The notes beneath the pieces were generated by a model. The model was not told the DNA's origin and searched no databases. It saw only the letters and a list, made by a program, of their open reading frames with translations. Shown one piece after another: positions 1-32,867 of a stretch of DNA of 64,000 nt. Every line of letters starts with the position of its first letter. Position 1 is the first letter of the stretch. The stretch lies in the IMG/VR virus record IMGVR_UViG_3300021387_000074; one strand, written 5' to 3'. The DNA comes from a virus (taxonomy: Duplodnaviria > Heunggongvirae > Uroviricota > Caudoviricetes). The position numbers were made by a program, and so were the translations under genes.

Positions 1-237
1 CATTAATGACTTCTTTATCTTCGTTGCTGTAGCTTTCTAATATATCTAGAATTATCTGGGTGTCTTTATTCTGCCCCTGCATTGAAGTATCCCAAAGTTT
101 TTCAAAGAAATCTCTTATTATTGCATTTTGTATGTCGTAATCTTCATCGCTACACCAAATGTCTTTATCAAAATTTACATTATCAATCATAAATACCTCA
201 AAAAAAGAAGGGGCTATAACTAGCCCCTCCCTTTTAA

Positions 238-1734
238 TTACAAGATCTTACCAAGCTCCAACTTTGTGAAGTTGTCTTCACGAATAAGTCTTGAAAGTGT
301 TGCTTTGAAGACCTTAGTGCTGCTTGGAATTACAACATAAGATTTCTTGCCTTCACCGAACACACCTACGCGGCAAACGTCGCCATTCTTGTCTTTTCCA
401 AGAATTACAGATTTGATAACCTGTGGTGCGAAAGTTCCATAAATATCTTTAGAGAACTTGTTTTCTGTTCCAAGCAAGTTGTTATACATACCTGAACAGC
501 TCTGGTGAATATCTGCGATTATTTCAGCGTTCTGCTGAGAAACCTTTGGAAGAAGAAGAACGATAGAATCCATATCGTTGATGAATTCAGTTGCTTCAGG
601 TACTACCTTATTGCCGCTCTTCTTTGCTGCTTCAACAGCTTTTTCCAGCTTTCTGAATGTTCCAGTCCAATCACCATATTTCTGAGCAATCATATCTACC
701 AAAGCGTTTTCGTATTTAGTAGAACCAAGAGTATTTGTAGACTCAAGTCTTGCGATATACTCATTGATAATATCCGAAAGTTTCTTGTTTGGATCGATTG
801 TGTTATCCATACCGTCATTAACGTTGGCTTCTACAATCTGCTTAACGTGGTCAGCAACCAAGTTGATAAATGCTTCAACCTGATCTTCTGTCTTGAAGTT
901 GTTTGAACCAAGTCCAATCATACCTGCACAGACATTCTTGATAACGATTGGGTCATCAATACCAAGTTTTGCCAAAGCTTTTACGAACTCTTTCAAGTAA
1001 GTAATTGAACGCCAAGAAAGAATGTTGTAAACATTTCCCTTTCTCTTATAGATGTTTGAGATGTCGTGGTTCTGAAGGTCGATATAACCAAGTGAACCAT
1101 CAACGTGAGAATACTTAACGATAAGGTCGTTAATCATCTCGTTATACTGCTTTTCGATTTCGTCTTCATCTACGTCTGAAGCAGCTCTTGTTTTTGGTGT
1201 CTGATGTACAAGACACTCGTGTATAATTTCTGAGTTGTTGTATCCCCAAAGAAGGTTAACGATACAGAAACGGTTAATTGTTGGAGCCATAATATTCATA
1301 AAACTTGGCAAGTTTTCTGAATAGTTAGCTGCTGCAATAATGATACAGTCTTCTGGAAGACATTTACCATTACCAATTCTGCGGTCGAAGATAAGCGAAA
1401 GCAAAGAACCCTGAACCTGTTCAGAACAAGTAGAAATCTCATCACAGAAAAGAAGTGATGGTTTATTATCTTTTGAAGCGTCCATAATACGCTGGAACCA
1501 AATTGGATCCTTCTGAACGAGTGTAGGTGAACCTGGCTCGTTTACCTGATAACCCATAATATCATCAGGGCTAAAACGCGAACCAATCAACTGTTCATAG
1601 TGATAACCTTTTTCTTTTGCCCAATTGGTAAGACTTGTTGTTTTACCATAACCTGGGTTAGAAATCAGCAAGATTGGCTGCTTTGTGATTTTTGACAACT
1701 CAATGTAGTCATAAATGTTTTGTGAAATACTCAT
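238..1734 (-). CDS. AAA+ ATPase, MoxR/CobS-like, with C-terminal extension
   Basis: Walker A 'SNPGYGKTT', Walker B 'LLFCDEI', sensor 'IIAAAN'. Strong SD (AAGGAAGGAAG) upstream of ATG. Confidence 0.8.
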   Translation of the reverse strand: MSISQNIYDYIELSKITKQPILLISNPGYGKTTSLTNWAKEKGYHYEQLIGSRFSPDDIMGYQVNEPGSPTLVQKDPIWFQRIMDASKDNKPSLLFCDEISTCSEQVQGSLLSLIFDRRIGNGKCLPEDCIIIAAANYSENLPSFMNIMAPTINRFCIVNLLWGYNNSEIIHECLVHQTPKTRAASDVDEDEIEKQYNEMINDLIVKYSHVDGSLGYIDLQNHDISNIYKRKGNVYNILSWRSITYLKEFVKALAKLGIDDPIVIKNVCAGMIGLGSNNFKTEDQVEAFINLVADHVKQIVEANVNDGMDNTIDPNKKLSDIINEYIARLESTNTLGSTKYENALVDMIAQKYGDWTGTFRKLEKAVEAAKKSGNKVVPEATEFINDMDSIVLLLPKVSQQNAEIIADIHQSCSGMYNNLLGTENKFSKDIYGTFAPQVIKSVILGKDKNGDVCRVGVFGEGKKSYVVIPSSTKVFKATLSRLIREDNFTKLELGKIL

Positions 1735-1834
1735 AGTTTCTTCCTTCCTTTGTATTTGTTTTCTTTATGTTAATATTTTAACACAAATTTAATTTTTTGT
1801 AAATCTCAGTGACCAGCCTGAAGGCTGGTTTCAA

Positions 1835-3922
1835 TTAGGCGGCTGCTTCTTCAATTTTTTTTTGAGTTTGAAATGAAGGATCTTTTCGACAAAGCTTCAT
1901 ATAATTGAAGAACAATCTAAAGTTTTCGGCGCTATAACCATCAAGATTGCTTTTACACATATTATACAACGGATATGCAGAAAAGTCAATATTATAGCTA
2001 GGAACCTCTTCAACTCCACACATAGTAAATGAACTATGGTACTGAGCGTCGTATACTTCTTTCTTGTACAACTCTCTTAAAAGCTTGAAGTTTTCATCTG
2101 CTTCAAGTTCGTCAAATTCTGGATCATTGATAAGCTCTTCCATCTGCTCACTGTAATAATAACCAGCCGCTCTTGTGATTGCTTCTTTCTTTCTACAGTT
2201 TTCAAGTTCTGTTCTGATTGTGTCAACGTTTGCTTTTACAAGTGTATCAACATAATCTTTAAGAGTTTGGAAACCTTTGTCCTTATATTTCTTAAATACA
2301 GTTTCCTTACAAGGTCTTACAACTACATTGTAATCAAGACCAAGGTCTCTAAGAATTCTGATATAATCAGAAGCTTTTCCTGCTTTCTCTTCTTCAATAA
2401 GAACTCCAACTTCATCGTCAGCCAAATCAGGAGTTCCGCTTCTATAATAACCGTAAGTTGTTCCTTCGTTCTTACCACCAACACACTTGAATGTCATAGT
2501 CTGTTGAGTTTTGAAACCAAGTTTTCTACCAGTTGCCTCTTTCTTTACGTCACAGTAGTCTGCCCATTTAACACATCTTACTTCATCGCCCAAGAACTCT
2601 TTACAAGCCTTTAAGTTGTCGGCATCTTTGTAGTCTTTAGGAAACACAACAACATAGTCATGGTCAGGGTCAAAAGACTTAACTACGTTTGCGAATGAAG
2701 TAGAAGTAAGTTTACCCTTATCATCAAATGTCTGAAGTGATAAGAAGTTATCTACTACACCCTGCTTAACTGTAGATTTAATTCCGTTAAAGTCTACAAA
2801 GATATATTTATTAGGAGTTCCTCTCCAACCAGTGCTATATGATATTGGTCTAGATACATCGAGATGTGCTCCTCTTCCACCACGTCTTACAATTAAAGAC
2901 TTACAGAAGAAAAGATTATTAACCTTATTCTCAATTTTTTCATTTAGCTCAGGGTCATAACTCTGATTTGCGCGAAGTTTAATTGCGTCTGTAAAATGAT
3001 AGTTGTCAAAATTTTGATTGATTTTGTCGTAATATTCTCCGATAACTTTCTTTACACCATTACAAATAAATTCAACTGTTTTATCATCATAGTGTAAAAC
3101 CTCGCGAGAAGGTGTAAGAGATACATCTGACTTACCAGCCATAATATTAATCTTCTCAACGCCTGCAGAACGGAAGTCGCTTCTAATCTCATCTCCACGA
3201 GCTTTCAAGTCGCTAAGGTTAACATTGAAGTTTACACCTGCTACATTAACTGTAATTTCTGGATTGTATCCGCAATTACCAATTTTAATAGAGTCCATAG
3301 AATAGAACTCTCTATCTTTTGCGAAAGATTCCCAATCAAAATTAGGATCTTCGCTAAATGTATTTACTTCTGGAAGAAAAGAAGTCCCCCTGAAAAACTT
3401 TTGAGCTTCTTCATCCCATTCACTATATTCCCAATCTCTGAGCCCCTTCAAATCAAATCTGATTTCAAGACCTGTTGGTTCATTACCAATTGGCTCTTCC
3501 TTTATTTTTTCAACGGTAGGTAAACCGTTTTTCTTTTCCATCTTGTAAGTAATCTTCTTGCCTTCACTGTAAGAAGTTACAAAATATTTATCAACAAGAG
3601 AAAACGGAGTCTTTGAGCCAAGTCCAAAATAACCAGTCTGATCTTCTCTGTCTGATTTTGTAGATGTGAAGTAATTAACGTAAATGTTATAAATCAAATC
3701 TTCAGGGATACCAGTTCCAAAGTCTCGAATATAAAAGAACTGTTCGCTAGGCGTTGGAAGATGCAAAATAAAAGGGTCGTCATCTTTACCCGCATCACGA
3801 TGTGAGTCATAAGCGTTTGTGCTTAACTCACGAATGATTGCTAATTTTGGGTTTGAATACAAATTGCTACTCAAAATCTGAAATGCTTCTGCAGTAGCAG
3901 CCATATTAAATGTTGATTCCAT
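1835..3922 (-). CDS. Hsp90/HtpG-family GHKL ATPase (chaperone homolog)
   Basis: N-terminus 'NLYSNPKLAIIRELSTNAYDS' parallels HtpG '[20 protein letters not shown]'. G1 box 'IRDFGTGI', G2 box 'GYFGLGSKT'. Length 695 aa is similar to HtpG. Confidence 0.75.
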   Translation of the reverse strand: MESTFNMAATAEAFQILSSNLYSNPKLAIIRELSTNAYDSHRDAGKDDDPFILHLPTPSEQFFYIRDFGTGIPEDLIYNIYVNYFTSTKSDREDQTGYFGLGSKTPFSLVDKYFVTSYSEGKKITYKMEKKNGLPTVEKIKEEPIGNEPTGLEIRFDLKGLRDWEYSEWDEEAQKFFRGTSFLPEVNTFSEDPNFDWESFAKDREFYSMDSIKIGNCGYNPEITVNVAGVNFNVNLSDLKARGDEIRSDFRSAGVEKINIMAGKSDVSLTPSREVLHYDDKTVEFICNGVKKVIGEYYDKINQNFDNYHFTDAIKLRANQSYDPELNEKIENKVNNLFFCKSLIVRRGGRGAHLDVSRPISYSTGWRGTPNKYIFVDFNGIKSTVKQGVVDNFLSLQTFDDKGKLTSTSFANVVKSFDPDHDYVVVFPKDYKDADNLKACKEFLGDEVRCVKWADYCDVKKEATGRKLGFKTQQTMTFKCVGGKNEGTTYGYYRSGTPDLADDEVGVLIEEEKAGKASDYIRILRDLGLDYNVVVRPCKETVFKKYKDKGFQTLKDYVDTLVKANVDTIRTELENCRKKEAITRAAGYYYSEQMEELINDPEFDELEADENFKLLRELYKKEVYDAQYHSSFTMCGVEEVPSYNIDFSAYPLYNMCKSNLDGYSAENFRLFFNYMKLCRKDPSFQTQKKIEEAAA

Positions 3923-4016
3923 TTTTTTCTCCGTTTAATTAAATCTTAATTTATTATACCATAAACTCACTTTTTTGTAAATTGCAGAGAGCAGGGTTCG
4001 CCCTGCTCTCGCTATG

Positions 4017-6299
4017 TTAATTGTTTTTAACTAAAATCTTTTCAAACTGTCCACAGAATTCATTGAACTTTGTGCCAGTGTAGTGCTGAATAACATCCAT
4101 ACTACTCCAACATACAAGGTATGCTGTATCAAAATCTTCAACGTTCCAATCTTCAAGTGTATCTTCACAGTCAGATACTACGAAAAGGTTTCCAATATCA
4201 GCTGGCTGCATCTTATCCTTAACGTATCTAATGCCTGAGCCAATATCTGTTCCACCACCTGAAACCGCTTTGATTTCATCCTTTGAATCAAATATTGCAC
4301 GAAGACCAGTATCCCAAAGAACGATCGTACATTTCTTATCAACCATTCTAGATACATTCTTAAAGATATTACAGAATCCCAAAATATTCTTTTCTGAGAT
4401 AGAACCTGAAACGTCGAGAATAACTGTCATCGGAACATCCTCATAACGAGTTTCTTCACGATAACGTGGTGTAAGAACATCACCACAACCACGACCGCGG
4501 TTATAATTATAAAGCAAGTCTCTCTTAGAAGTTGTGATACTACGGTTAATCAAAAGTTCCTTGATTTCTTTTTCAAGTCCTTCGAAGTCAACCCAGTTAG
4601 AACATCCATCTGCAAGAACAGTTCCCTGTCCACCGCCACCACCTTTTGAGTAGCCCTGGAGTTCCTGATTCTGAGCGGCAGACTGTTCAGCCTTTGTTTC
4701 TACCATTTTCTGATAGTCTGTAACAATCTTCTGAACAAAGTTCTTGATCATTTCTTCAAGCTCTTCTTTTGTTGGCTGGTAAGGTTCTTCTACATCTCCA
4801 TCACCATCTTCGCCATCCTCTCCTTCTCCCGAATCCTGCCCATCTCCGCTTTCGCCCAACTGATCTGCATTATCGCCTTCAGCCTCTGATTCTCCGTCAG
4901 AGTTGTTCTCGGATTCATCTCCGTCTCCTGATAAATCTTCTCCGCTTTCACTAGATTCATCAGAACCTCCAGAAGATGCGTCGTTAGAAGCTGTGGATCC
5001 GTCATCTTCAGACTTCTCACCATCTTCTTCACTTCCGCCAGCATTTGAGTTCTGTTCATCTTCGGCTGAGTCTCCTCTATCAGAGCTTCCGCCGCTAGAA
5101 CTAGAATCTCCGTCTCTGTCGTCGGAGTCATTTCCGTCTTTAGATGAACTTCCCCCGTTAGAGGATTCTTTGTCTTCACTGCCTTTTTCTTCATCTGAAG
5201 AACCTCCGCCTACTCCGTCTGATCCGCTTTCAGATTTATCGTCAGATTTACTCTGTCCACTTGAGGCGCCAGCACTTTGTGAATCTCTATCTTCAGTATC
5301 TCCATCCTTGTTGTTAGAAGAAGAACCGCTTTGATTCTGAGAGCCGCTATTTTCATTCTGATTTTTTCCATCTTTCCAATCCTGTGACTGAGTATTTGCG
5401 GCAGCATCCTGGTTCTGTTGGTCTGAGCCCATACCCTGCTGTGGCTGCTGATTCTGCTGTCCGCTCTGAGAACCATTCTGCTGCTGATTGTTCTGTTGCT
5501 GGTTCTGCTGACCGCTCTGCCCATTCTGATTGTTCTGACCATTCTGATTTTGCTGATTGTTTTTCTGCTTTCTCTGTGGCTTATCCTTCTCTTCCTTATT
5601 GTGGTTCATATCAGCTTCATCTGGCTGACCACCACTTGAAGAACCGTCCTGGTTTGTATTACAACCACCCTGAGTACCGTTATTCTGCTGTCTGTTTCTC
5701 TGATTAGCTTGGGCTTGTGCCTGAGCCTGATTCATAAACCACTCTTCAGGGTTCTGCAAAATCAAAAGCAAATACTCGTTTGCTGTTAATCCTGGCGGAT
5801 ATCCAACATCTTGTGGAAGCATGTGATAAACTGGCTTTCCATCAATTATACACTCTTCAGGGTAAAGTGTATCCAAATATCTTACTTCATCTTCTGTGAA
5901 ATACTTTGTAAGACATTCCCAATCGCGCAACATTTTAAAGATATAATCTTCAAAGATGTCGTACATATTATCAACGTCCTGAACTGGATCATCAAATAAT
6001 GGTTTAAGTTTTTCATAAACCGCTCTGATTTTTGGAGCTGAAAACTTGAAGTCCAAACTCTGATGCTTTGCGTAATGCTGCAACTTAATGTGAGCGAACT
6101 CGATAGTTTTCAACCATTCCTTCAGTTCTTCGGGAAGCTGATCATTCAAAGCAATACGATAAACACTACCAGCAAGTCTATTGGAAATACGGTAAGTGTA
6201 ACAAACATTGCTCCAAGATTTGTTAGGAACTATCTGATAAAGTAGTCCTTTAGAAAATTTGTCCATTTCCTTTTTACAAGCTGGCAAGTTCATAGTCAT
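4017..6299 (-). CDS. von Willebrand factor A (VWA) protein with ~330-aa acidic/Q/N/S/G-rich disordered linker (CobT/BchD-like architecture)
   Basis: C-terminal MIDAS motif 'VILDVSGSIS' followed by 'SGGGTDIGSGI'. Central low-complexity region of about residues 190-520. Conserved N-terminal ~190-aa domain. Confidence 0.8.
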   Translation of the reverse strand: MTMNLPACKKEMDKFSKGLLYQIVPNKSWSNVCYTYRISNRLAGSVYRIALNDQLPEELKEWLKTIEFAHIKLQHYAKHQSLDFKFSAPKIRAVYEKLKPLFDDPVQDVDNMYDIFEDYIFKMLRDWECLTKYFTEDEVRYLDTLYPEECIIDGKPVYHMLPQDVGYPPGLTANEYLLLILQNPEEWFMNQAQAQAQANQRNRQQNNGTQGGCNTNQDGSSSGGQPDEADMNHNKEEKDKPQRKQKNNQQNQNGQNNQNGQSGQQNQQQNNQQQNGSQSGQQNQQPQQGMGSDQQNQDAAANTQSQDWKDGKNQNENSGSQNQSGSSSNNKDGDTEDRDSQSAGASSGQSKSDDKSESGSDGVGGGSSDEEKGSEDKESSNGGSSSKDGNDSDDRDGDSSSSGGSSDRGDSAEDEQNSNAGGSEEDGEKSEDDGSTASNDASSGGSDESSESGEDLSGDGDESENNSDGESEAEGDNADQLGESGDGQDSGEGEDGEDGDGDVEEPYQPTKEELEEMIKNFVQKIVTDYQKMVETKAEQSAAQNQELQGYSKGGGGGQGTVLADGCSNWVDFEGLEKEIKELLINRSITTSKRDLLYNYNRGRGCGDVLTPRYREETRYEDVPMTVILDVSGSISEKNILGFCNIFKNVSRMVDKKCTIVLWDTGLRAIFDSKDEIKAVSGGGTDIGSGIRYVKDKMQPADIGNLFVVSDCEDTLEDWNVEDFDTAYLVCWSSMDVIQHYTGTKFNEFCGQFEKILVKNN

Positions 6300-6374
6300 T
6301 ACTCCTAAAATTAAAAACTGTAAGGTCTTCCTTCCTTACAGTTTTATTATATCACGAAAATAAATTTTTGTAAA

Positions 6375-6587
6375 TTATTTCTTCTTCTTTTTCTTGTGCT
6401 TCTTAGCACCATCTGGAACACCATAAAGATTCTTGGCTTCACCCGTAACAACATCTTTCCACATCTTCATTCCACGTGCAAGTTCTGCTGCTTCTTTTGG
6501 ATCGGTGGAACCAAAAAGTATAGATGGATCTGATGGTGAAGGAAAGCCATAAAATTTTATCAGTTTTGGTTTTTCTCTTCCGAACAT
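6375..6587 (-). CDS. small basic hypothetical protein (poly-Lys C-terminus)
   Basis: ORF with upstream promoter-like motif at 6343-6378. No recognisable domain. Confidence 0.35.
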   Translation of the reverse strand: MFGREKPKLIKFYGFPSPSDPSILFGSTDPKEAAELARGMKMWKDVVTGEAKNLYGVPDGAKKHKKKKKK

Positions 6588-6760
6588 TTATTTCTCCTAT
6601 AAGTTCTAACATTTACAACAATACAAATAGCGTTAAGAACAATAAAAATTATTTCCATAACAAAAACGGCAACACTTGTTGTTGTAATTGCACAAAGCAA
6701 ACAAAGAAGTAAAGCAAGTGAGTTAATTGTTATTCCAAATAAGCAAAACATATTGCCTCC

Positions 6761-6985
6761 TTAATTGATTGTAGCAAGAAGTTCTTTGAGTTTCAAAACT
6801 TCTTCTTTTGTAAGAGTCAAACCTTTCTGCATTTTCTTTGAACCATCTTCTTCGGTAGTCCAGTTTCTTAAATCATACTTTGGCTCCGCGCCATTATATG
6901 AAATGATATTTAATTCTTTCGAGTATTTGCCACTCGCAGAAATTGTCCCAAGTTTTTCTTTGATTTCAAATGAGAATTCTGCCAT
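6761..6985 (-). CDS. hypothetical protein (possible YdbC/PC4-like small ssDNA-binding fold)
   Basis: 74-aa ORF with pattern 'ISYNGAEPKYDLRNW...KGLTLTKEE'. Weak resemblance only. Confidence 0.35.
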   Translation of the reverse strand: MAEFSFEIKEKLGTISASGKYSKELNIISYNGAEPKYDLRNWTTEEDGSKKMQKGLTLTKEEVLKLKELLATIN

Positions 6986-7345
6986 TTAGTCCTCCTTTGG
7001 CGGTTCTTCTGAAGTTAGTTGTTTGTAAAGTTCGTCTGCTTTTTGCTTTAAATAATCGTCATTTAATGAATTATTAAATTTATTAATTTTCATAATTACA
7101 GCGTCAATTGGGTTTCTAACACCAATTTCGTGTAAAGACAACGAAGGAATTTCTTCAGCATCTATTACCGCCGCTTTACAAAAATTATAGCATACTCTTC
7201 TTAATCCGTCAAGTTTGGCTAATGCCTCCTTTTCATTTGACCAGCCTTTAATACCATTAGCGGCAGCTGTGAGTATCTCAGCAAGCTCGTATTTGTCCAA
7301 CCTCTTCCTCCAAAGTCTCTTTTGCTTTTCTTTCGCAAAGATCAT
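6986..7345 (-). CDS. hypothetical protein
   Basis: ORF in the minus-strand gene series. The 5' end overlaps the next ORF, so the start is uncertain. Confidence 0.4.
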   Translation of the reverse strand: MIFAKEKQKRLWRKRLDKYELAEILTAAANGIKGWSNEKEALAKLDGLRRVCYNFCKAAVIDAEEIPSLSLHEIGVRNPIDAVIMKINKFNNSLNDDYLKQKADELYKQLTSEEPPKED

Positions 7346-7805
7346 CTAAAAGATTATCAAGCGCCTTGCGGGTATCGTACTTTTCAACTTCAATGGCAAC
7401 CTTCTTTGTAAGCTCTTCATTTATATAAAAGTTGTTATACTTTTCGCCATTAAACTTAAACAAAGGACGACCATTTGTAGGATTGAAATTTGGATAATAA
7501 ACATCTTTACCATGCTTATAGGCATAAGCAATTTCGCGCTTTGCTCCCATAGAATCTTTCCAGTTTGGAAGAAGAGCAACTGCATCACAAGCATCAAGCA
7601 TTGCAAAGTCTACATGCAGCCAATCATCATATGAGAAAGCATTAAATTTCTGCATTGCATATGTAACAGCTGGGTTCATAACAGATTCAATTTTTTCGCC
7701 GACGTGATGTCCATGTTTAACAAGAAAAGTTTCAACTTTTCTAAAATTATCCCAAATCTTTTCTTCTGAAAGACCTGTCATTTTTCCACTAAGATAAACC
7801 TTCAT
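7278..7805 (-). CDS. nucleoside 2-deoxyribosyltransferase-like protein (NDT/DNPH1/DUF4406 fold)
   Basis: N-terminal 'MKVYLSGKMTG' and C-terminal 'CDAVALLPNW...GAKREIAYAYKHGKDVYY' match the NDT-family signature (AxVALLxG...EIGYAxAxGKPV). Confidence 0.5.
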   Translation of the reverse strand: MKVYLSGKMTGLSEEKIWDNFRKVETFLVKHGHHVGEKIESVMNPAVTYAMQKFNAFSYDDWLHVDFAMLDACDAVALLPNWKDSMGAKREIAYAYKHGKDVYYPNFNPTNGRPLFKFNGEKYNNFYINEELTKKVAIEVEKYDTRKALDNLLDDLCERKAKETLEEEVGQIRAC

Positions 7806-7807
7806 AA

Positions 7808-8206
7808 TTAATTCTCCTTCTTTAATTCAAGAACAGATTTGCCGTTTTCTTCAATAGCGCAGTACTCTGCAATTGAAAGAACGATAGCAGCAATACCACA
7901 AGTTATAAACATAAGCCAACCGATGCCACATATAGCCCCGAAAACAGATGGACATTTATTTTCAAATTTAGCGAATGCCCAAATAAGTTTAATAATTGCA
8001 CTTCCAATAGAAGACAAAACAATTAAGCCAACTGAAGAAACAACACCATAAATAGCAAGCATCATTTCTTTTCCAAGGAATGTTAAGTTTTCTGATTCAA
8101 ACAATTCGTCAATTTTAATTTTGAGTTTTTTTAGAAAACCTTCTTTCTGCTTTTTTGCAGGAGTTTCGCCAAAGGCGTCAACAAATACGTCTTTCTTCTT
8201 TCCCAT
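7808..8206 (-). CDS. membrane protein (2-3 TM helices)
   Basis: Hydrophobic segments 'LAIYGVVSSVGLIVLSSIGSAIIKLIWAF' and 'VFGAICGIGWLMFITCGIAAIVLSIA'. Confidence 0.45.
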   Translation of the reverse strand: MGKKKDVFVDAFGETPAKKQKEGFLKKLKIKIDELFESENLTFLGKEMMLAIYGVVSSVGLIVLSSIGSAIIKLIWAFAKFENKCPSVFGAICGIGWLMFITCGIAAIVLSIAEYCAIEENGKSVLELKKEN

Positions 8207-8862
8207 TATACTACCTCGTCAACAAGACCAAATTCAACAAGCTGCTCAGGTGTGTAATAAGTTTCTGTTTTGAACATTGTATCAAGCTGCTCTTCTGTAA
8301 GTTTAGAATGCTCAAGATAAACACCTTTATAGATCTTGTTCCAATTTTTGTTATTTGCAATAGCAATTTCCTGCTCTTCCTGAGTCTTAGGCATTGTATC
8401 TAATGCTCTCATTGGATGAATAAGGCTCATAGCATACTTAGAACAAGTTCTGTGATTTCCAACACAAGCGATAAGAGAAGCACCTGAATCGGCTTCGCCT
8501 TCAATGTGTGTATTTACTTTGATAGGCACTAAAGCATCACCAATTTGGCAAGCCTTTCCGCTCTGAATATCTTTAATTACCTGAACAATCTGCAAAGCGT
8601 CTGAAAGACTTCCACCATTTGAATTGATATGAAGTTCAATGTCTGCAGGTTTGTTACCTGTTTCAATACAAGCGTTTGTAATTGTAAGTGCTACCTCATG
8701 CAAATTTATAATCAAAGATCTTGTTGTGTCAGGATTGATTTCTTCGTTGAAGTAGTAATGATTTCTTACCAAATAATTCTTTGGTTCACCGCCGCCACCA
8801 AGTGCCGACAAGTCTAAAATCTGTCCTTCTCCACAAGAGTCTTTTACTTCTTTTTCTTCCAT
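8206..8862 (-). CDS. ClpP-like serine protease (S14 family)
   Basis: 'INSNGGSLSDALQIV' (ClpP INSPGGSV), 'GEADSGASLIA' catalytic Ser region, 'MSLIHP' (MIHQP His), 'FGLVDEV'. Confidence 0.7.
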   Translation of the reverse strand: MEEKEVKDSCGEGQILDLSALGGGGEPKNYLVRNHYYFNEEINPDTTRSLIINLHEVALTITNACIETGNKPADIELHINSNGGSLSDALQIVQVIKDIQSGKACQIGDALVPIKVNTHIEGEADSGASLIACVGNHRTCSKYAMSLIHPMRALDTMPKTQEEQEIAIANNKNWNKIYKGVYLEHSKLTEEQLDTMFKTETYYTPEQLVEFGLVDEVV

Positions 8863-9995: not shown

Positions 9996-11009
9996 TTATT
10001 TTTTATCAACCAGGTGAGAACCGTCTAAACTTATATTATTCTTGCCATTATGTTTAACAAAGAACATATTTTCATCTGACATTTTTACGACTTGTTGCTC
10101 TGTTAAATAATCAGCATTCTGAGCAACGCCAATACTTAAAGTAATTCCAAACTGTTGATAGAATAAATTCTGAATGCTTTTTAGTTTATTAACAGTTTCT
10201 TGTGTATTAAGTCTTGAAAGAATTACAAACTCTTCTCCACCATATCTGTAAACCTTAAATTCATCACTACTTACAAATAAACAAATGTCTGCAAGTTTCT
10301 TTAGACACAAATCTCCAAATTGATGTCCATGCTCGTTATTACAATTATGGAAATCGTCTATATCTATCATAGCAATAAATCTAAAATGTTTTGTTTTTAA
10401 ATCTTCATCAAACTTTCTTCTATTATATAGTTGAGTTAACTCATCATGAAACGTTAAGTTTAGTAATCTTTTATTATAGGTAAAACTTACATTTGAAAAA
10501 AAGTAAGTAAATAAGAATACAAACATATAGCCAACTGAGAAACTCAAGTTGTAAAGAATAATATTTCTATTTTCCATTGTAAAAACATTTTTATCTATAT
10601 AATAAAAGATTGCCAAATACTCTATAAGAGTCAAAATAGGCGCGAACAAGTATCTCTTTTTACTTACCGATATTCCATAAGCAACTGGGGCTATAAACAA
10701 GTAAAAAACAAAAGAGCCCGACAATCCTTTTTTATCTGCTAATAAAATTAGTGGGAATAAAACATTTGTACAACCAGCAGTTAATAATATTGCTGTAATA
10801 GTGTATGGTATTTTTTTTCTAAAAAGCCAAATAATCAATTGAAAGCCTAAACAAATAGCAGTTGGTAAAGCGTTCCCATGATTAGATGCAAAAGTAAGCG
10901 ACAAAATTAAACCAACCGTATTAGATAAAATACCCGCAACCGCCAAGATGTTGACAATTACGGGTTCTATAGGTTTTAATGAATTGTTATTTTTAAATCT
11001 CTTTTTCAT
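9996..11009 (-). CDS. membrane-anchored GGDEF-domain diguanylate cyclase
   Basis: About 5 N-terminal TM helices. C-terminal 'DELTQLYNRRKF', 'DIDDFHNCNNEHGHQFGD', and active-site 'RYGGEEF' (GG[D/E]EF). Confidence 0.75.
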   Translation of the reverse strand: MKKRFKNNNSLKPIEPVIVNILAVAGILSNTVGLILSLTFASNHGNALPTAICLGFQLIIWLFRKKIPYTITAILLTAGCTNVLFPLILLADKKGLSGSFVFYLFIAPVAYGISVSKKRYLFAPILTLIEYLAIFYYIDKNVFTMENRNIILYNLSFSVGYMFVFLFTYFFSNVSFTYNKRLLNLTFHDELTQLYNRRKFDEDLKTKHFRFIAMIDIDDFHNCNNEHGHQFGDLCLKKLADICLFVSSDEFKVYRYGGEEFVILSRLNTQETVNKLKSIQNLFYQQFGITLSIGVAQNADYLTEQQVVKMSDENMFFVKHNGKNNISLDGSHLVDKK

Positions 11010-23598: not shown

Positions 23599-24624
23599 TT
23601 ACTCCTTAAAATAAGTATTATAAACATAATCAGCGATGTCAGGGAAAACTTCTTTAATTTTTATCATTTTCTCTGCCTCTGAATAGTCAGCTCCAAGTCC
23701 GCCAAACACACTTTTAAGATTACCAACCTTCCTATCAAACTGTTTAAGTTTTCTATTAAAGTCAGCAATAGTTAAAGCTGTTGGTGGATTCTGTGTATCG
23801 AACACTTCGAACACATCATGGTTTACAGAATCACAAAGAATAACAATATCTTTGTCTTTGTTTGTAATTGCTTCATAGTCACCCATGCAACAATACTCTG
23901 TATGACCAACTACCTGCTTAGGGAAATAAGGTTCTTTTATTAAACTGTTTGGTCTAATCCATAAACAGAACTGAGAAACCTCATCGCCACTTCCACTAAA
24001 GCAACCATCCCAATCAAGTTTTTCCTCAAACCCATTTGAGAAGTTTTCATCGCCTGGAATATGACTTCTTTCATGCCAACACTTATTAAGTGTTTCAACA
24101 GAGAATAAATTCTGATCCCATTCTACAACATCTTTGTAGAGTTCTTTGAAGTAAGCGTCTGCTTCTTCTTTAGATTCAAACTCTGTTCTATCTGCTTTTG
24201 GATAAACAGTATAAATGTCTCCCATAATTTCTTTCATATAAGAAACGGCAGTCTTTGAAAAACCTGCGTGAGAGAACACCCAGCCATCACATTCAAAAGC
24301 AAGATCGATTATATCCATATTTGCCATAAGTAAGGCGCGGATAACACTTATTTTACTGTTTTGATGTCCACTACAATTTGAGCCATATCTTGAGCCACTA
24401 ACATAACTCCAATCATGGTTACCAATTAAAAGTATTACTTTATTAGGATACTTTCTTTTGAATCTACAGATCGTCTGAAAGTTCTCACCCTGGTCATCCC
24501 ATACATTTTCCCAAGCATCAAAATAGTCACCAAGGAAAACTACAAAATCAACCTCATCAATTTTCTTCTGGGCAATTTCCCAATTATGACTACCATGAAC
24601 ATCGGGAATTATTAAAATTTTCAT
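23599..24624 (-). CDS. calcineurin-like metallophosphoesterase (candidate RNA 2',3'-phosphatase of a repair module)
   Basis: 'IIPDVHG', 'FLGDYFD', 'GNHDW' motifs. The likely start MKIL overlaps the ligase stop as ATGA, with an AAGGA RBS upstream. Confidence 0.65.
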   Translation of the reverse strand: MKILIIPDVHGSHNWEIAQKKIDEVDFVVFLGDYFDAWENVWDDQGENFQTICRFKRKYPNKVILLIGNHDWSYVSGSRYGSNCSGHQNSKISVIRALLMANMDIIDLAFECDGWVFSHAGFSKTAVSYMKEIMGDIYTVYPKADRTEFESKEEADAYFKELYKDVVEWDQNLFSVETLNKCWHERSHIPGDENFSNGFEEKLDWDGCFSGSGDEVSQFCLWIRPNSLIKEPYFPKQVVGHTEYCCMGDYEAITNKDKDIVILCDSVNHDVFEVFDTQNPPTALTIADFNRKLKQFDRKVGNLKSVFGGLGADYSEAEKMIKIKEVFPDIADYVYNTYFKE

Positions 24625-25838
24625 TTTATCAAATCCTTGTATACTGAACAATACATTTCATAACCCTTAGACTTTTCTTTCCAAGAATCCCAAAGTTCAT
24701 TTAAGTATTCATTAGAATCCTTACCGTCTGCAGCCTTGAAATATATTGGTCTCAAAGATGGTGGAACCTGAGAAGTTACCCACAAAGCAAATTCTTTACG
24801 ATTTTTCTTGTAATCATTCTCCCAAACATCTTTTGCATAATCCATTGTAGAAATAAACTCTCTCTTAAAGACTTTAATTTCTGCAACCTGCTTATCTGTC
24901 TTTTCCTTCAACTCAGGGAAATCATCATGGCTTTCAGTAATGCACAAACGCCAAATACCTTCAGGGGTATCGTGGTCGCGAATATACTTCAAAGCCAAGT
25001 AAGAAGGACACTTCATTTTTACACGAGTCCAATTCTCTTCGTCTACTACAACAAAACCTTCCTGGTTTTTTCCGCTGAACTTTTCAAGTGCGGCGAGAAT
25101 ATCTTCCTTCTTCTTCAAGTCGTAATAATGTGGAGTGTCATAAGGCAAACCAAACATTTTTATTACTTCTCTTGGGTCGTGTTCAATACCTTCTGCATCA
25201 CGAGCACCATGGAACCAAAGTTTTGTTTCTGTATATTCGCAAATGATTTTATTCTGTGGCGAAGTAAGTTCAAACATTAAAGTCCAACCATCAGGAATTC
25301 TTGAAACCCAATCCATTTCACAATGGAAGTAGTTCTTATCTGCATCCCAAACAGTTGCGCCTGGAGCATCTTTTGTTAATGCTTTTGTCATCAATTCCTG
25401 ATAACAATGAACATCTTCTGTTTCATAATCAATTGGAGTATAAAGTCCAACACCACCATTTGTTACCCAATAATCTGCCCCTTTATATTTGAACATCTTA
25501 ATAAGCTGTCCATCTATTTTTTCGGGAACAAACAAAAATTTTGAATCCCAATTTATTGTATCAGCATGTCCGTCGTTGATGTCAAAGAATTTCAAATAAG
25601 GAGCACAAATAACATTTACAGTTCCATCTTCAAGAACTTCAACAACTGTTCCGCGGCACTGCTTAACAATTTTATCTGAAAGGTCAGATTCTATAAGATC
25701 ATAAACCAGCATCCACCAATTTGGATTGTTAGGAAACTGTGTTACAGAACGTAAGCAATAAGGCTTCTTCTTTAATTTGTCCTGCCAATTCTTTAGGTTC
25801 TTTCTAATAAAGTTCTCAAGTTCTTCAAAGTTTTTCAT
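24621..25838 (-). CDS. RNA ligase (Rnl1-like nucleotidyltransferase)
   Basis: Motif I 'EKIDGQL' (KxDG), motif IV 'EGFVVV', motif V 'RVKMK'. The likely start MKNFEEL has an AAGGAG RBS 8 nt upstream. Confidence 0.7.
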   Translation of the reverse strand: MKNFEELENFIRKNLKNWQDKLKKKPYCLRSVTQFPNNPNWWMLVYDLIESDLSDKIVKQCRGTVVEVLEDGTVNVICAPYLKFFDINDGHADTINWDSKFLFVPEKIDGQLIKMFKYKGADYWVTNGGVGLYTPIDYETEDVHCYQELMTKALTKDAPGATVWDADKNYFHCEMDWVSRIPDGWTLMFELTSPQNKIICEYTETKLWFHGARDAEGIEHDPREVIKMFGLPYDTPHYYDLKKKEDILAALEKFSGKNQEGFVVVDEENWTRVKMKCPSYLALKYIRDHDTPEGIWRLCITESHDDFPELKEKTDKQVAEIKVFKREFISTMDYAKDVWENDYKKNRKEFALWVTSQVPPSLRPIYFKAADGKDSNEYLNELWDSWKEKSKGYEMYCSVYKDLIK

Positions 25839-25856
25839 TGTTTTGCTCCTTATACT

Positions 25857-25915
25857 AAAATTATACCACGAAAGCAAAAAAAAGTAAAGCCCATCTACTG
25901 TTAGGTGGGCTTATT
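25857..25915 (-). terminator. conserved terminator-promoter cassette (copy 1)
   Basis: + strand reads 'aaaattataccacgaaagc-aaaaaaaagtaaagcccatctactgttaggtgggctt'. On the minus strand this is hairpin, then TTTACTTTTTTT, then TGGTATAAT. Confidence 0.6.
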
Positions 25916-31706: not shown

Positions 31707-32867
31707 TTAAACAGTTGCTCCATATTTTCTTGCAAATTTAGCACTGTCTCTACTCTTGATTTCAGCACCAATGATTTCCATATCTTCTTCATGGAGGTCG
31801 TCATCAAAGTTTTGTTCTTCTGCAGTTATTTCATCTGCGGTAAGATTATTTGTAAGATAGCTGCTGATTTCAGCATCTTCGTCAATACTGTATCTGAAGT
31901 GCTCAGGTACACCGAGATTCATCAAACGTTCTCTTTCTTCTGACTTCTTACACTTGAGAGAAGCCCATCTACCATCAATCATACAATCTCGCTGACAACA
32001 ATCGTGATAAACGATAGTTTCACTATTCTTAAACTTGATGAAGATGCTTACATTAAAGTTTTCTTCTTCTTCGGCTTCAACATTGAAGTAAGTGATTGCT
32101 TCACTTGGAGTCATATCTGGGAAGTTGTTAAGTTCTTCAACGAATGAAGAAAGAATATCCATAGATACGAACTTCTTACTACCAAGAGTTTTTACAATAT
32201 CTTCTGTGAGTTCTTTTCTTACGAGATTATCAGCGCAGTATGCTCTTACAACATTTGCATTTTCTGAAGTAAATTTGTAGTGATAGCGAATACGTCCTGG
32301 TCTTGATTTCAAGTTTTCATCAAGCTTCCAAACGTTATTTACTGTGAGCAAGAACAAGTTGCCAGCGCAGCCGCTGTTTCCATCCAATACAGAGAGAAGT
32401 GTTTCCTGCTTTGTCTGGTCATCTTCATTATCGCCACCATTGGCATTACCGCCCATAAACTTTTCAAATTCATCCATAAAGATGACACAATCTTTTATGT
32501 TCATAAGGAAGTCAGGCAGTCCTGGCAAAAATTCAGAAACAACAACAATTGGCTTCTTTCCGTTAAGCTGCTCCATTACAAGACGAGCAGTAAGTGTCTT
32601 TCCAAGTCCTTTGTCACCTGACAAAAGAACACCAAGGTTTTTGTCGGCTTTGTTCTTGCCATAAGCTTCTACAATATGGCTTGCAACATTTTGAGAATTT
32701 CCATAAATCTTTCCGTGAGAAAGTTTTACTTCTGTTTCTTCCAAATAACAGCCGATGAATTTGTTAAAACAAACCTTCCAAGTTCCCATCGGGACTTCTT
32801 TTCCAAATGTCAAATCAGATTCTTCTGCGTCAAAGAATCTAACCATGTTTTCAGTTCTTAACCACAT
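31707..32867 (-). CDS. AAA-family ATPase of unknown function
   Basis: Walker A 'GDKGLGKT', Walker B 'VIFMDEFEKF'. Confidence 0.6.
   Translation of the reverse strand: MWLRTENMVRFFDAEESDLTFGKEVPMGTWKVCFNKFIGCYLEETEVKLSHGKIYGNSQNVASHIVEAYGKNKADKNLGVLLSGDKGLGKTLTARLVMEQLNGKKPIVVVSEFLPGLPDFLMNIKDCVIFMDEFEKFMGGNANGGDNEDDQTKQETLLSVLDGNSGCAGNLFLLTVNNVWKLDENLKSRPGRIRYHYKFTSENANVVRAYCADNLVRKELTEDIVKTLGSKKFVSMDILSSFVEELNNFPDMTPSEAITYFNVEAEEEENFNVSIFIKFKNSETIVYHDCCQRDCMIDGRWASLKCKKSEERERLMNLGVPEHFRYSIDEDAEISSYLTNNLTADEITAEEQNFDDDLHEEDMEIIGAEIKSRDSAKFARKYGATV

Follow-up and report, generated by a model that had tools for sequence, protein, structure and literature searches.

The rII region ranks among the founding loci of molecular genetics, and to our knowledge the mode of action of its products, rIIA and rIIB, is still not understood. 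In T-even phages, the two proteins counter RexAB abortive infection (PMC10312443; preprint 10.1101/2025.11.20.689424). A second phage accessory system, formed by a MoxR AAA+ ATPase and a metallopeptidase-vWA protein, was described in jumbo phages by Iyer, Anantharaman, Krishnan, Burroughs and Aravind in 2021 (PMC7824862). Here, we report a locus that joins these two systems, which have so far been discussed apart. It was found in a 64,000-nucleotide stretch of DNA (hereafter, the window) from the Caudoviricetes record IMGVR_UViG_3300021387_000074 of IMG/VR. An initial annotation, made from the sequence alone, had pointed out three consecutive large genes on the minus strand, and open reading frames were indeed present at exactly these positions. 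We refer to them as genes A, B and C (Table 1); they are transcribed in the order C, B, A.

All three proteins belong to known families. B is a homolog of rIIA, A is a MoxR-class ATPase, and C is a candidate zincin-VWA partner of such ATPases. In this lineage, the slot directly downstream of rIIA, which is normally held by rIIB, is occupied by the AAA+ gene A. On balance, we favor the interpretation that this is a variant rII locus, in which rIIA would work beside or through an AAA+/VWA remodeler instead of rIIB and would serve an accessory function in host takeover or counter-defense.

Gene B

Homology to rIIA extended along most of the length of B. The protein matched phrog_612 ('RIIA lysis inhibitor') with an E-value of 2.8e-83, residues 3-629 being aligned to profile positions 19-637 of 725. 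BLASTP aligned it to T4 rIIA with 30% identity over residues 4-293 (E 7e-25), and 2,904 GenBank phage records annotated as rIIA were matched in a tblastn search with B, so that the family is spread over thousands of phages. In addition, the best matches of an AlphaFold model of B (predicted local distance difference test score, pLDDT, 87.9) in the viral structure collection BFVD were full-length RIIA proteins, with E-values down to 6e-31. As in T4 rIIA, an N-terminal GHKL ATPase, whose fold agreed in the predicted model, is followed by an rIIA-type remainder, and the gene is placed in the early, accessory region of a large phage. The motifs quoted in the initial annotation were real: the N-box stretch NLYSNPKLAIIRELSTNAYDS (residues 20-40), the G1 box DFGTG and the G2 box GYFGLGSK were all present. 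Residues E32, N36, D39, D67, G69, G71, G97, G100 and G102 were invariant in 55 homologs, and the conserved motifs point to an intact ATP-binding site and a predicted active ATPase.

B had initially been taken for a clear member of the Hsp90 family, which would be unusual in a phage. Profile searches instead assigned it to rIIA, and only the resemblance of its ATPase module to Hsp90 held. Hsp90 proteins (HtpG, TRAP1 and Grp94) were the best PDB match of this module and share two motifs with B, YSN..(x)RELxxNAxD in the motif I region and GxFGxG in the G2 box. When a profile of the B subfamily was searched against all PDB sequences, the sole significant matches (E up to 1e-3) were to TRAP1 (6.5e-5); Hsp90, Hsp82, Grp94 and HtpG scored more weakly, two histidine kinases appeared in the non-significant tail, and MutL, MORC and GyrB were not among the matches. 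A profile was needed to see this likeness, and single-sequence PDB searches with A and B returned only noise. B also has an invariant PSRExL loop, which may resemble the catalytic LSRExLQ loop of Hsp90. However, the Pfam HSP90 family (PF00183) did not match B at E up to 1, and HATPase_c_3 (1.1e-4) and HATPase_c (8.4e-3) remained under their cut-offs. In structure comparisons, about 310 of the 695 residues aligned to Hsp90, with MORC, topoisomerase II and MutL scoring nearly equally, and a profile of the second domain (residues 195-345) found no Hsp90 middle-domain match in the PDB. Thus, the GHKL ATPase module of B is nearest to Hsp90/TRAP1 among solved structures, but the full-length rIIA homology, the lack of a Pfam HSP90 match and the partial alignment rule out B as a phage-borne Hsp90 or Hsp90 paralog.

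These results also bear on the proposal that B, the AAA+/VWA pair and ClpP-like and GroES-like genes form a proteostasis or assembly-chaperone system. The window does contain a ClpP-like gene, as had been noted, and it lies 2 kb upstream of C (Table 1); some UniProt entries that share the fold of B carry the automatic name 'HSP90 family'. We found no specific support for a folding function, and T4 rIIA is known as an anti-Rex factor and not as a folding chaperone (PMC10312443; 10.1101/2025.11.20.689424). Such a system is therefore very unlikely, and for this locus counter-defense or host takeover is favored over proteostasis.

Absence of rIIB

Of 79 other IMG/VR loci with rIIA, 73 had rIIB directly downstream of it, and most of the others were contigs that end early. 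An rIIB profile, an iterated hidden Markov model (HMM), was built from 75 sequences of this set. It detected nothing in the whole window at E up to 10. The related loci searched, among them most of those with the gene orders C-B-A, B-A-C and B-A, likewise gave no match at E up to 1, and L107 gave none at E up to 1e-4. When rIIB was compared by hhalign with the families of A, B and C, the probabilities were 0.2% or less. Moreover, rIIB was not revealed by PHROG scans, which covered ten further open reading frames of the window (one of 312 residues) and, in L001, a close relative of the window locus, the genes that follow A. The locus thus differs from the T4 arrangement in that rIIB is found neither next to rIIA nor elsewhere in the window, and the gene downstream encodes an AAA+ ATPase unrelated to rIIB.

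We also observed rIIA genes on long contigs with neither rIIB nor an A homolog downstream (L106, 8001-10124; L116; L118). These genes may have other replacement partners. A separate observation concerns phrog_609 ('RIIB', 1055 positions), which is composite: the GHKL N-terminus of B matched positions 23-197 and T4 rIIB matched positions 751-1049. Such a composition fits the existence of fused rIIA-rIIB proteins, for example that of RB43.

Gene A

Gene A could be assigned to the MoxR class, in agreement with the initial annotation, because Pfam, PHROG and structural evidence converged. The Pfam AAA (8.4e-7, 29.9 bits against a cut-off of 21.2) and AAA_5 (1.5e-4, 22.2 bits against a cut-off of 22) families matched, AAA_3 and bpMoxR staying under cut-off, and phrog_1297 matched at 1.8e-23. 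An AlphaFold2 model (pLDDT 90.8) was closest in Foldseek to NorQ of the NorQ-NorD(VWA) complexes (6e-9), followed by MoxR CHU_0153 (2r44; 2e-7) and CbbQ (8e-7), with MCM in between. The best structural matches of A are therefore MoxR-class ATPases that act with VWA partners.

Walker A (NPGYGKTT, residues 26-33, nucleotides 1636-1656) and Walker B (LLFCDE, residues 94-99, nucleotides 1438-1455) were both present. Across 39 homologs, the invariant positions comprised both Walker motifs, including G28, K31, T32, D98 and E99, as well as N137, R155 and R242. By our own reading of the alignment, these residues would correspond to Walker A/B, the sensor 1 Asn, the Arg finger and sensor 2, and the modeled protein is predicted to be an active ATPase. 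Cyanophage and vibriophage versions of A are 330-380 residues long and do not have the C-terminal extension of about 200 residues, at positions 290-498, seen in the window protein.

Two paralogous A genes about 127 kb apart were observed on a contig of megaphage size (385,934 bp), IMGVR_UViG_3300028591_000070 (L020/L056 and L022/L060). A C partner, in C-A order, accompanies only one of them.

Gene C

For C, direct profile evidence stayed under threshold: Pfam DUF2201 (3.8e-4, 21.0 bits against a cut-off of 26.4) and VWA_CoxE (1.7e-3) were both under cut-off, and no phrog was matched. A chain of similarity nevertheless links C to known proteins. In BLASTP searches, both end domains of C matched proteins encoded directly downstream of A homologs in three loci (L010, L011 and L012; 1e-18 to 1e-19), and these proteins in turn matched phrog_1314 (1.6e-8 to 7.7e-25) and DUF2201/VWA_CoxE. 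The C-family HMM also caught two proteins (in L006 and L008) that match DUF2201_N at 1e-25 to 1e-27, and distant relatives, including the neighbor of the MoxR gene of cyanophage S-TIM54, match DUF2201_N (putative metallopeptidase) and DUF2201 (VWA-like). A few close homologs of C carried a precomputed PF09967 annotation. C is thus a putative zincin-VWA partner (DUF2201_N/DUF2201, phrog_1314) of phage MoxR ATPases. The label of phrog_1314, 'HNH endonuclease', is wrong, as this family is the zincin-VWA partner of MoxR. A tblastn search of GenBank phages with the two domains of C gave no match.

The zincin motif HExxHxxxxH was kept in 45 of 45 C homologs outside the subclade of the window. Within this subclade (the window, L001-3, L009, L014 and L030), the first zinc-ligand His is replaced by Ile, Lys, Asn or Val, with Ile in the window. 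Since a zinc-binding residue is lost, the zincin-like domain of C is probably not catalytic and probably no longer a peptidase. We examined whether this loss was tied to rIIA adjacency, and this was ruled out, as L013, L034 and L035 have an adjacent rIIA yet an intact HExxH. The DxSxS motif of the metal ion-dependent adhesion site (MIDAS) was kept in nearly all C homologs (D629-V-S-G-S633 in the window).

Between the two domains lies a linker in which 79% of residues are D, E, Q, N, S or G and 5% are hydrophobic, with 79 acidic against 24 basic residues. GC content climbs to 0.426 over the corresponding DNA, which contained only weak short tandem repeats. A set of homologs (P0196-P0206) with 89-100% identity in the aligned folded-domain segment varied in total length from 637 to 758 residues, and the wider family ranged from 608 to 768 residues, suggesting that the linker gains and loses sequence quickly.

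The initial annotation had described C as CobT/BchD-like. Its MIDAS-containing VWA-like domain after a long acidic linker was confirmed, but the family assignment was not: no CobT or BchD Pfam match was obtained, and the N-terminal domain is zincin-like and not CobT- or AAA-like. A related idea is that the pair serves metal insertion in the manner of the CobS-CobT or BchI-BchD chelatases, as an auxiliary metabolic gene set. Like these enzymes, the pair combines an AAA+ ATPase with an acidic linker and a VWA domain, and cyanophages carry cobS. In addition to the points above, however, no CobS match was found in Pfam, the nearest folds of A are NorQ, CbbQ and MoxR, and no cobalamin or chlorophyll genes were present among the window open reading frames profiled, which makes this the least probable of the explanations considered and a highly improbable one.

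A parallel, and the working model for the mechanism, is provided by NorQ-NorD, CbbQ-CbbO and RavA-ViaA, in which an ATPase of the same AAA+ fold class as A is combined with a partner containing an acidic linker and a MIDAS VWA domain. NorQ-NorD and CbbQ-CbbO differ from the locus in that C has a zincin-like N-terminal domain instead of the N-terminal regions of NorD and CbbO, and in that the context here is a phage with no cNOR or Rubisco gene nearby. Compared with the jumbo-phage MoxR/vWA pair, A and C are putative distant members, and C has the same order of zincin, linker and VWA domain with MIDAS. The window clade differs in gene order (C-B-A), with rIIA between the two genes, and window C differs in the lost first His of HExxH and in a linker of 345 residues.

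Gene neighborhoods

Gene order was assessed in 103 loci around A homologs, collected from IMG/VR, JGI metagenomes, GTDB genomes and assemblies and scanned with local HMMs of A, B and C. Counts were made on the 37 distinct A genes for which each flank extended over at least 2.5 kb. The order A-C was the most common (16/37), and C-A was found in 4/37 loci, whereas A was alone in 7/37. The rIIA-linked orders were C-B-A (6/37), B-A-C (2/37) and B-A (2/37). A C homolog was present within 3 kb of A in 28 of the 37 loci, so the A-C pair is the widespread unit.

Wherever rIIA was present, that is in 10 of the 37 loci, it was the gene directly upstream of A, in the same orientation. In these loci, C could be upstream, downstream or absent, and the flanking genes differed as well. 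Viewed from rIIA, an A homolog adjoined it in every sampled subgroup of the closest relatives of B (P0093, P0104, P0111, P0113, P0119 and P0141, within P0076-P0146), down to about 33% identity. The next rIIA group out (P0164) had no adjoining A homolog. In a rough neighbor-joining tree of A, three rIIA-linked groups were interspersed with unlinked ones.

Some neighboring genes were considered and rejected. A 407-residue gene after A in L015/L016 was not a C homolog, as it has no HExxH, no MIDAS and no HMM match, and 719- and 305-residue genes upstream of A in L010, suspected by their size to be rIIA and rIIB, matched neither.

The initial annotation had regarded the three genes as a module and was not aware of a described one of this kind. 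Co-occurrence of the three genes in related phages and rIIA-A adjacency in three gene orders agree with the first part of this view, but most AAA+/VWA pairs have no rIIA nearby. Regarding the second part, the MoxR-vWA pair was already known (PMC7824862), and literature searches on rIIA with Hsp90 and on DUF2201 returned nothing relevant. We found no description of an rIIA that lacks rIIB and is fixed beside a MoxR-VWA pair in which the zincin is degenerate and the linker hyper-extended, and this arrangement appears to be undescribed.

Possible function of the locus

If the locus is a variant rII locus, its action could be modeled on related systems. By analogy with NorQ-NorD and CbbQ-CbbO, the MIDAS site of C would grip an acidic residue on a target protein, and an A hexamer would remodel the C-bound target. 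B, the rIIA ATPase, would work alongside or through this A/C remodeler in place of rIIB. This would serve host takeover or counter-defense as an accessory function, and not general protein folding. The identities of the parts, their conserved neighborhoods and the lack of a detectable rIIB are results, whereas the counter-defense role, the target and any coupling between rIIA and the AAA+/VWA pair, be it physical or functional, are inferred.

A counter-defense role is plausible, given that in a transposon screen the MoxR ATPase of a Vequintavirinae phage (bas54_0063) was dispensable in a laboratory strain and needed against a predicted defense system (10.1101/2025.11.20.689424). The AAA+ domain of A falls in phrog_1297, as does the ATPase of FENT2, another Vequintavirinae phage, whose close homologs in rV5-like phages are annotated as 'MoxR ATPase'. 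The accessory, non-structural nature of nearby genes (RNA ligase, phosphoesterases, GGDEF and ClpP) also speaks for such a role.

The occurrence of rIIA with a fixed MoxR-type neighbor, and not with rIIB, suggests that partners of rIIA may be exchangeable and points to protein remodeling as the activity involved. A stronger version of this model, which we offer tentatively and consider rather unlikely, is that the MoxR-type remodeler and its VWA adaptor have functionally replaced rIIB, the three proteins forming one three-component, two-ATPase machine that would neutralize an abortive-infection or membrane-targeting defense. If so, rIIA would be a modular ATPase able to take interchangeable partners, and the locus would offer a new, structurally tractable handle on the unsolved rII mechanism.

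Several observations weigh against a variant rII locus. No rIIA was found within 3 kb of A in 27 of the 37 loci, nor by HMM in flanks of up to 8 kb, which implies that the AAA+/VWA pair has no need of rIIA. Each of the genes A, B and C has its own promoter-like site, and hairpins lie between them, so there is no tight operon. An rIIB could lie beyond the 64-kb window, as the genome is about 230 kb, or be too divergent for detection. PADLOC returned nothing meaningful for A, B or C, and no anti-defense family was matched. The match of A to the FENT2 ATPase covers the AAA+ core only (tblastn 1e-4), and orthology between A and the Bas54 MoxR ATPase is putative. In addition, the tree of A is a neighbor-joining sketch only. 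The phages with the three arrangements all live in guts, are broadly related and have other genes in common (SLT, GGDEF and ClpP), and part of the rIIA-A adjacency may be inherited synteny. If adjacency reflects nothing else, the locus would be an ordinary set of known phage accessory genes.

In the main rival explanation, the genes are independent neighbors: A and C would form a chaperone pair for virion assembly or maturation, as proposed for their jumbo-phage counterparts and in analogy to the system of the Acidianus two-tailed virus, with rIIA an unrelated accessory gene beside them by shared ancestry. The separate promoters and the many A-C pairs without rIIA leave room for this explanation, a virion-assembly role was proposed for the phage MoxR-vWA pair by Iyer et al. 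(PMC7824862), and the rIIA-linked loci are from related phage groups. Other data do not fit it well. The order rIIA-then-AAA+ persists through three rearrangements in which C has moved or is absent, and it is in exactly these rIIA-AAA+ loci, as far as they were searched, that rIIB is missing. The region around the locus is non-structural, the degenerate zincin of the window clade makes proteolytic processing of virion proteins unlikely, and a phage MoxR ATPase could be dispensed with for growth on a laboratory strain (10.1101/2025.11.20.689424). We regard independent neighbors as possible but doubtful, and a variant rII locus as the better explanation.

Transcription and genomic context

Features of the locus are listed in Table 1. 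The promoter-like sites of A, B and C are copies of a strong promoter-like motif, TTTACA(AAAA)-N14-TGnTAWAAT with an extended -10 element, that occurs 23 times in the window (from 1775 to 61598), always on the minus strand. The expected number by chance is 0.27, and the density is about one per 2.8 kb. Phage transcription units with this motif probably form one temporal class, read by host sigma-70. As A, B and C each have their own copy, they probably share a temporal class of expression, and the promoter-like sites together with the intergenic hairpins suggest three co-oriented units rather than one tight operon.

Table 1. Positions of genes, protein regions and predicted regulatory elements in the window
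Feature	Position	Strand	Description
Intrinsic terminator after A	199-228	minus	GC-rich hairpin followed by T-run
Gene A	238-1734	minus	498 aa; MoxR/NorQ-like AAA+ ATPase; helical C-terminal extension and small beta domain
Promoter-like site 5' of A	1775-1803	minus	Same motif class as the sites of B and C
Hairpin after B stop codon	1812-1829		
Gene B	1835-3922	minus	695 aa; rIIA family; GHKL ATPase and transducer-like domain, rIIA-type C-terminal half
B, GHKL ATPase and transducer-like part	3023-3922	minus	About aa 1-300
Promoter-like site 5' of B	3953-3981	minus	Same motif class as the site of C
Hairpin without T-run	3987-4010		Between C stop codon and promoter-like site of B
Gene C	4017-6299	minus	760 aa; zincin-like N-terminal domain joined by a long disordered linker to a VWA-like domain
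C, VWA-like domain	4020-4694	minus	aa 536-760; MIDAS DVSGS at aa 629-633, nt 4401-4415
C, low-complexity linker	4695-5729	minus	aa 191-535 (345 aa); acidic/Q/N/S/G
C, degenerate zincin motif	6075-6104	minus	IEFAHIKLQH, aa 66-75; family consensus HExxHxxxxH
Promoter-like site 5' of C	6346-6374	minus	TTTACA-N17-TATAAT with TG (extended -10)
ClpP-like protease gene	8206-8862	minus	Pfam CLP_protease 1.2e-13; 2 kb upstream of C

A blastn search with positions 1-8000 of the window against 50,697 phage records gave no match. A-C pairs were also detected on contigs of Treponema metagenome-assembled genomes, which points to spirochaetes of the rumen and of horse and termite guts as hosts. The source of the window is probably an uncultivated jumbo phage of Treponema or other animal-gut spirochaetes. 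Some of these contigs have plainly bacterial flanks: in L011/L098, L096 and L099, A-C pairs with an intact HExxH were located among histidine kinase, methyl-accepting chemotaxis protein and esterase genes. In the probable host genus, the A-C pair thus exists in bacterial DNA as well, either as a module of the cell or as one integrated long ago.

Genes around the locus are accessory and not structural; they encode ClpP-like, DUF4406 and PC4-like proteins, a GGDEF cyclase, phosphoesterases, an Rnl1-like RNA ligase and a further ATPase. The ClpP-like, DUF4406 (7278-7805) and PC4-like single-stranded DNA-binding (6761-6985) genes are directly upstream of C on the minus strand. This block is syntenic in L009 and L014, and in L013 the ClpP gene is downstream of A. 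A GGDEF diguanylate cyclase (9996-11009, minus strand; Pfam 7.9e-23) was also observed near the locus in L009, L013, L014 (two copies) and L107, and its conservation suggests manipulation of host cyclic di-GMP signaling.

Further into the window, a gene for a metallophosphoesterase-like protein (23599-24651; phrog_1649) overlaps one for an Rnl1-type RNA ligase (24621-25877; phrog_562, 3.8e-41), both on the minus strand. This pair resembles a T4-style tRNA-repair set that counters anticodon nucleases. In addition, a second, unrelated ATPase gene was found on the minus strand at 31707-32867 (phrog_2376, 3.9e-66).

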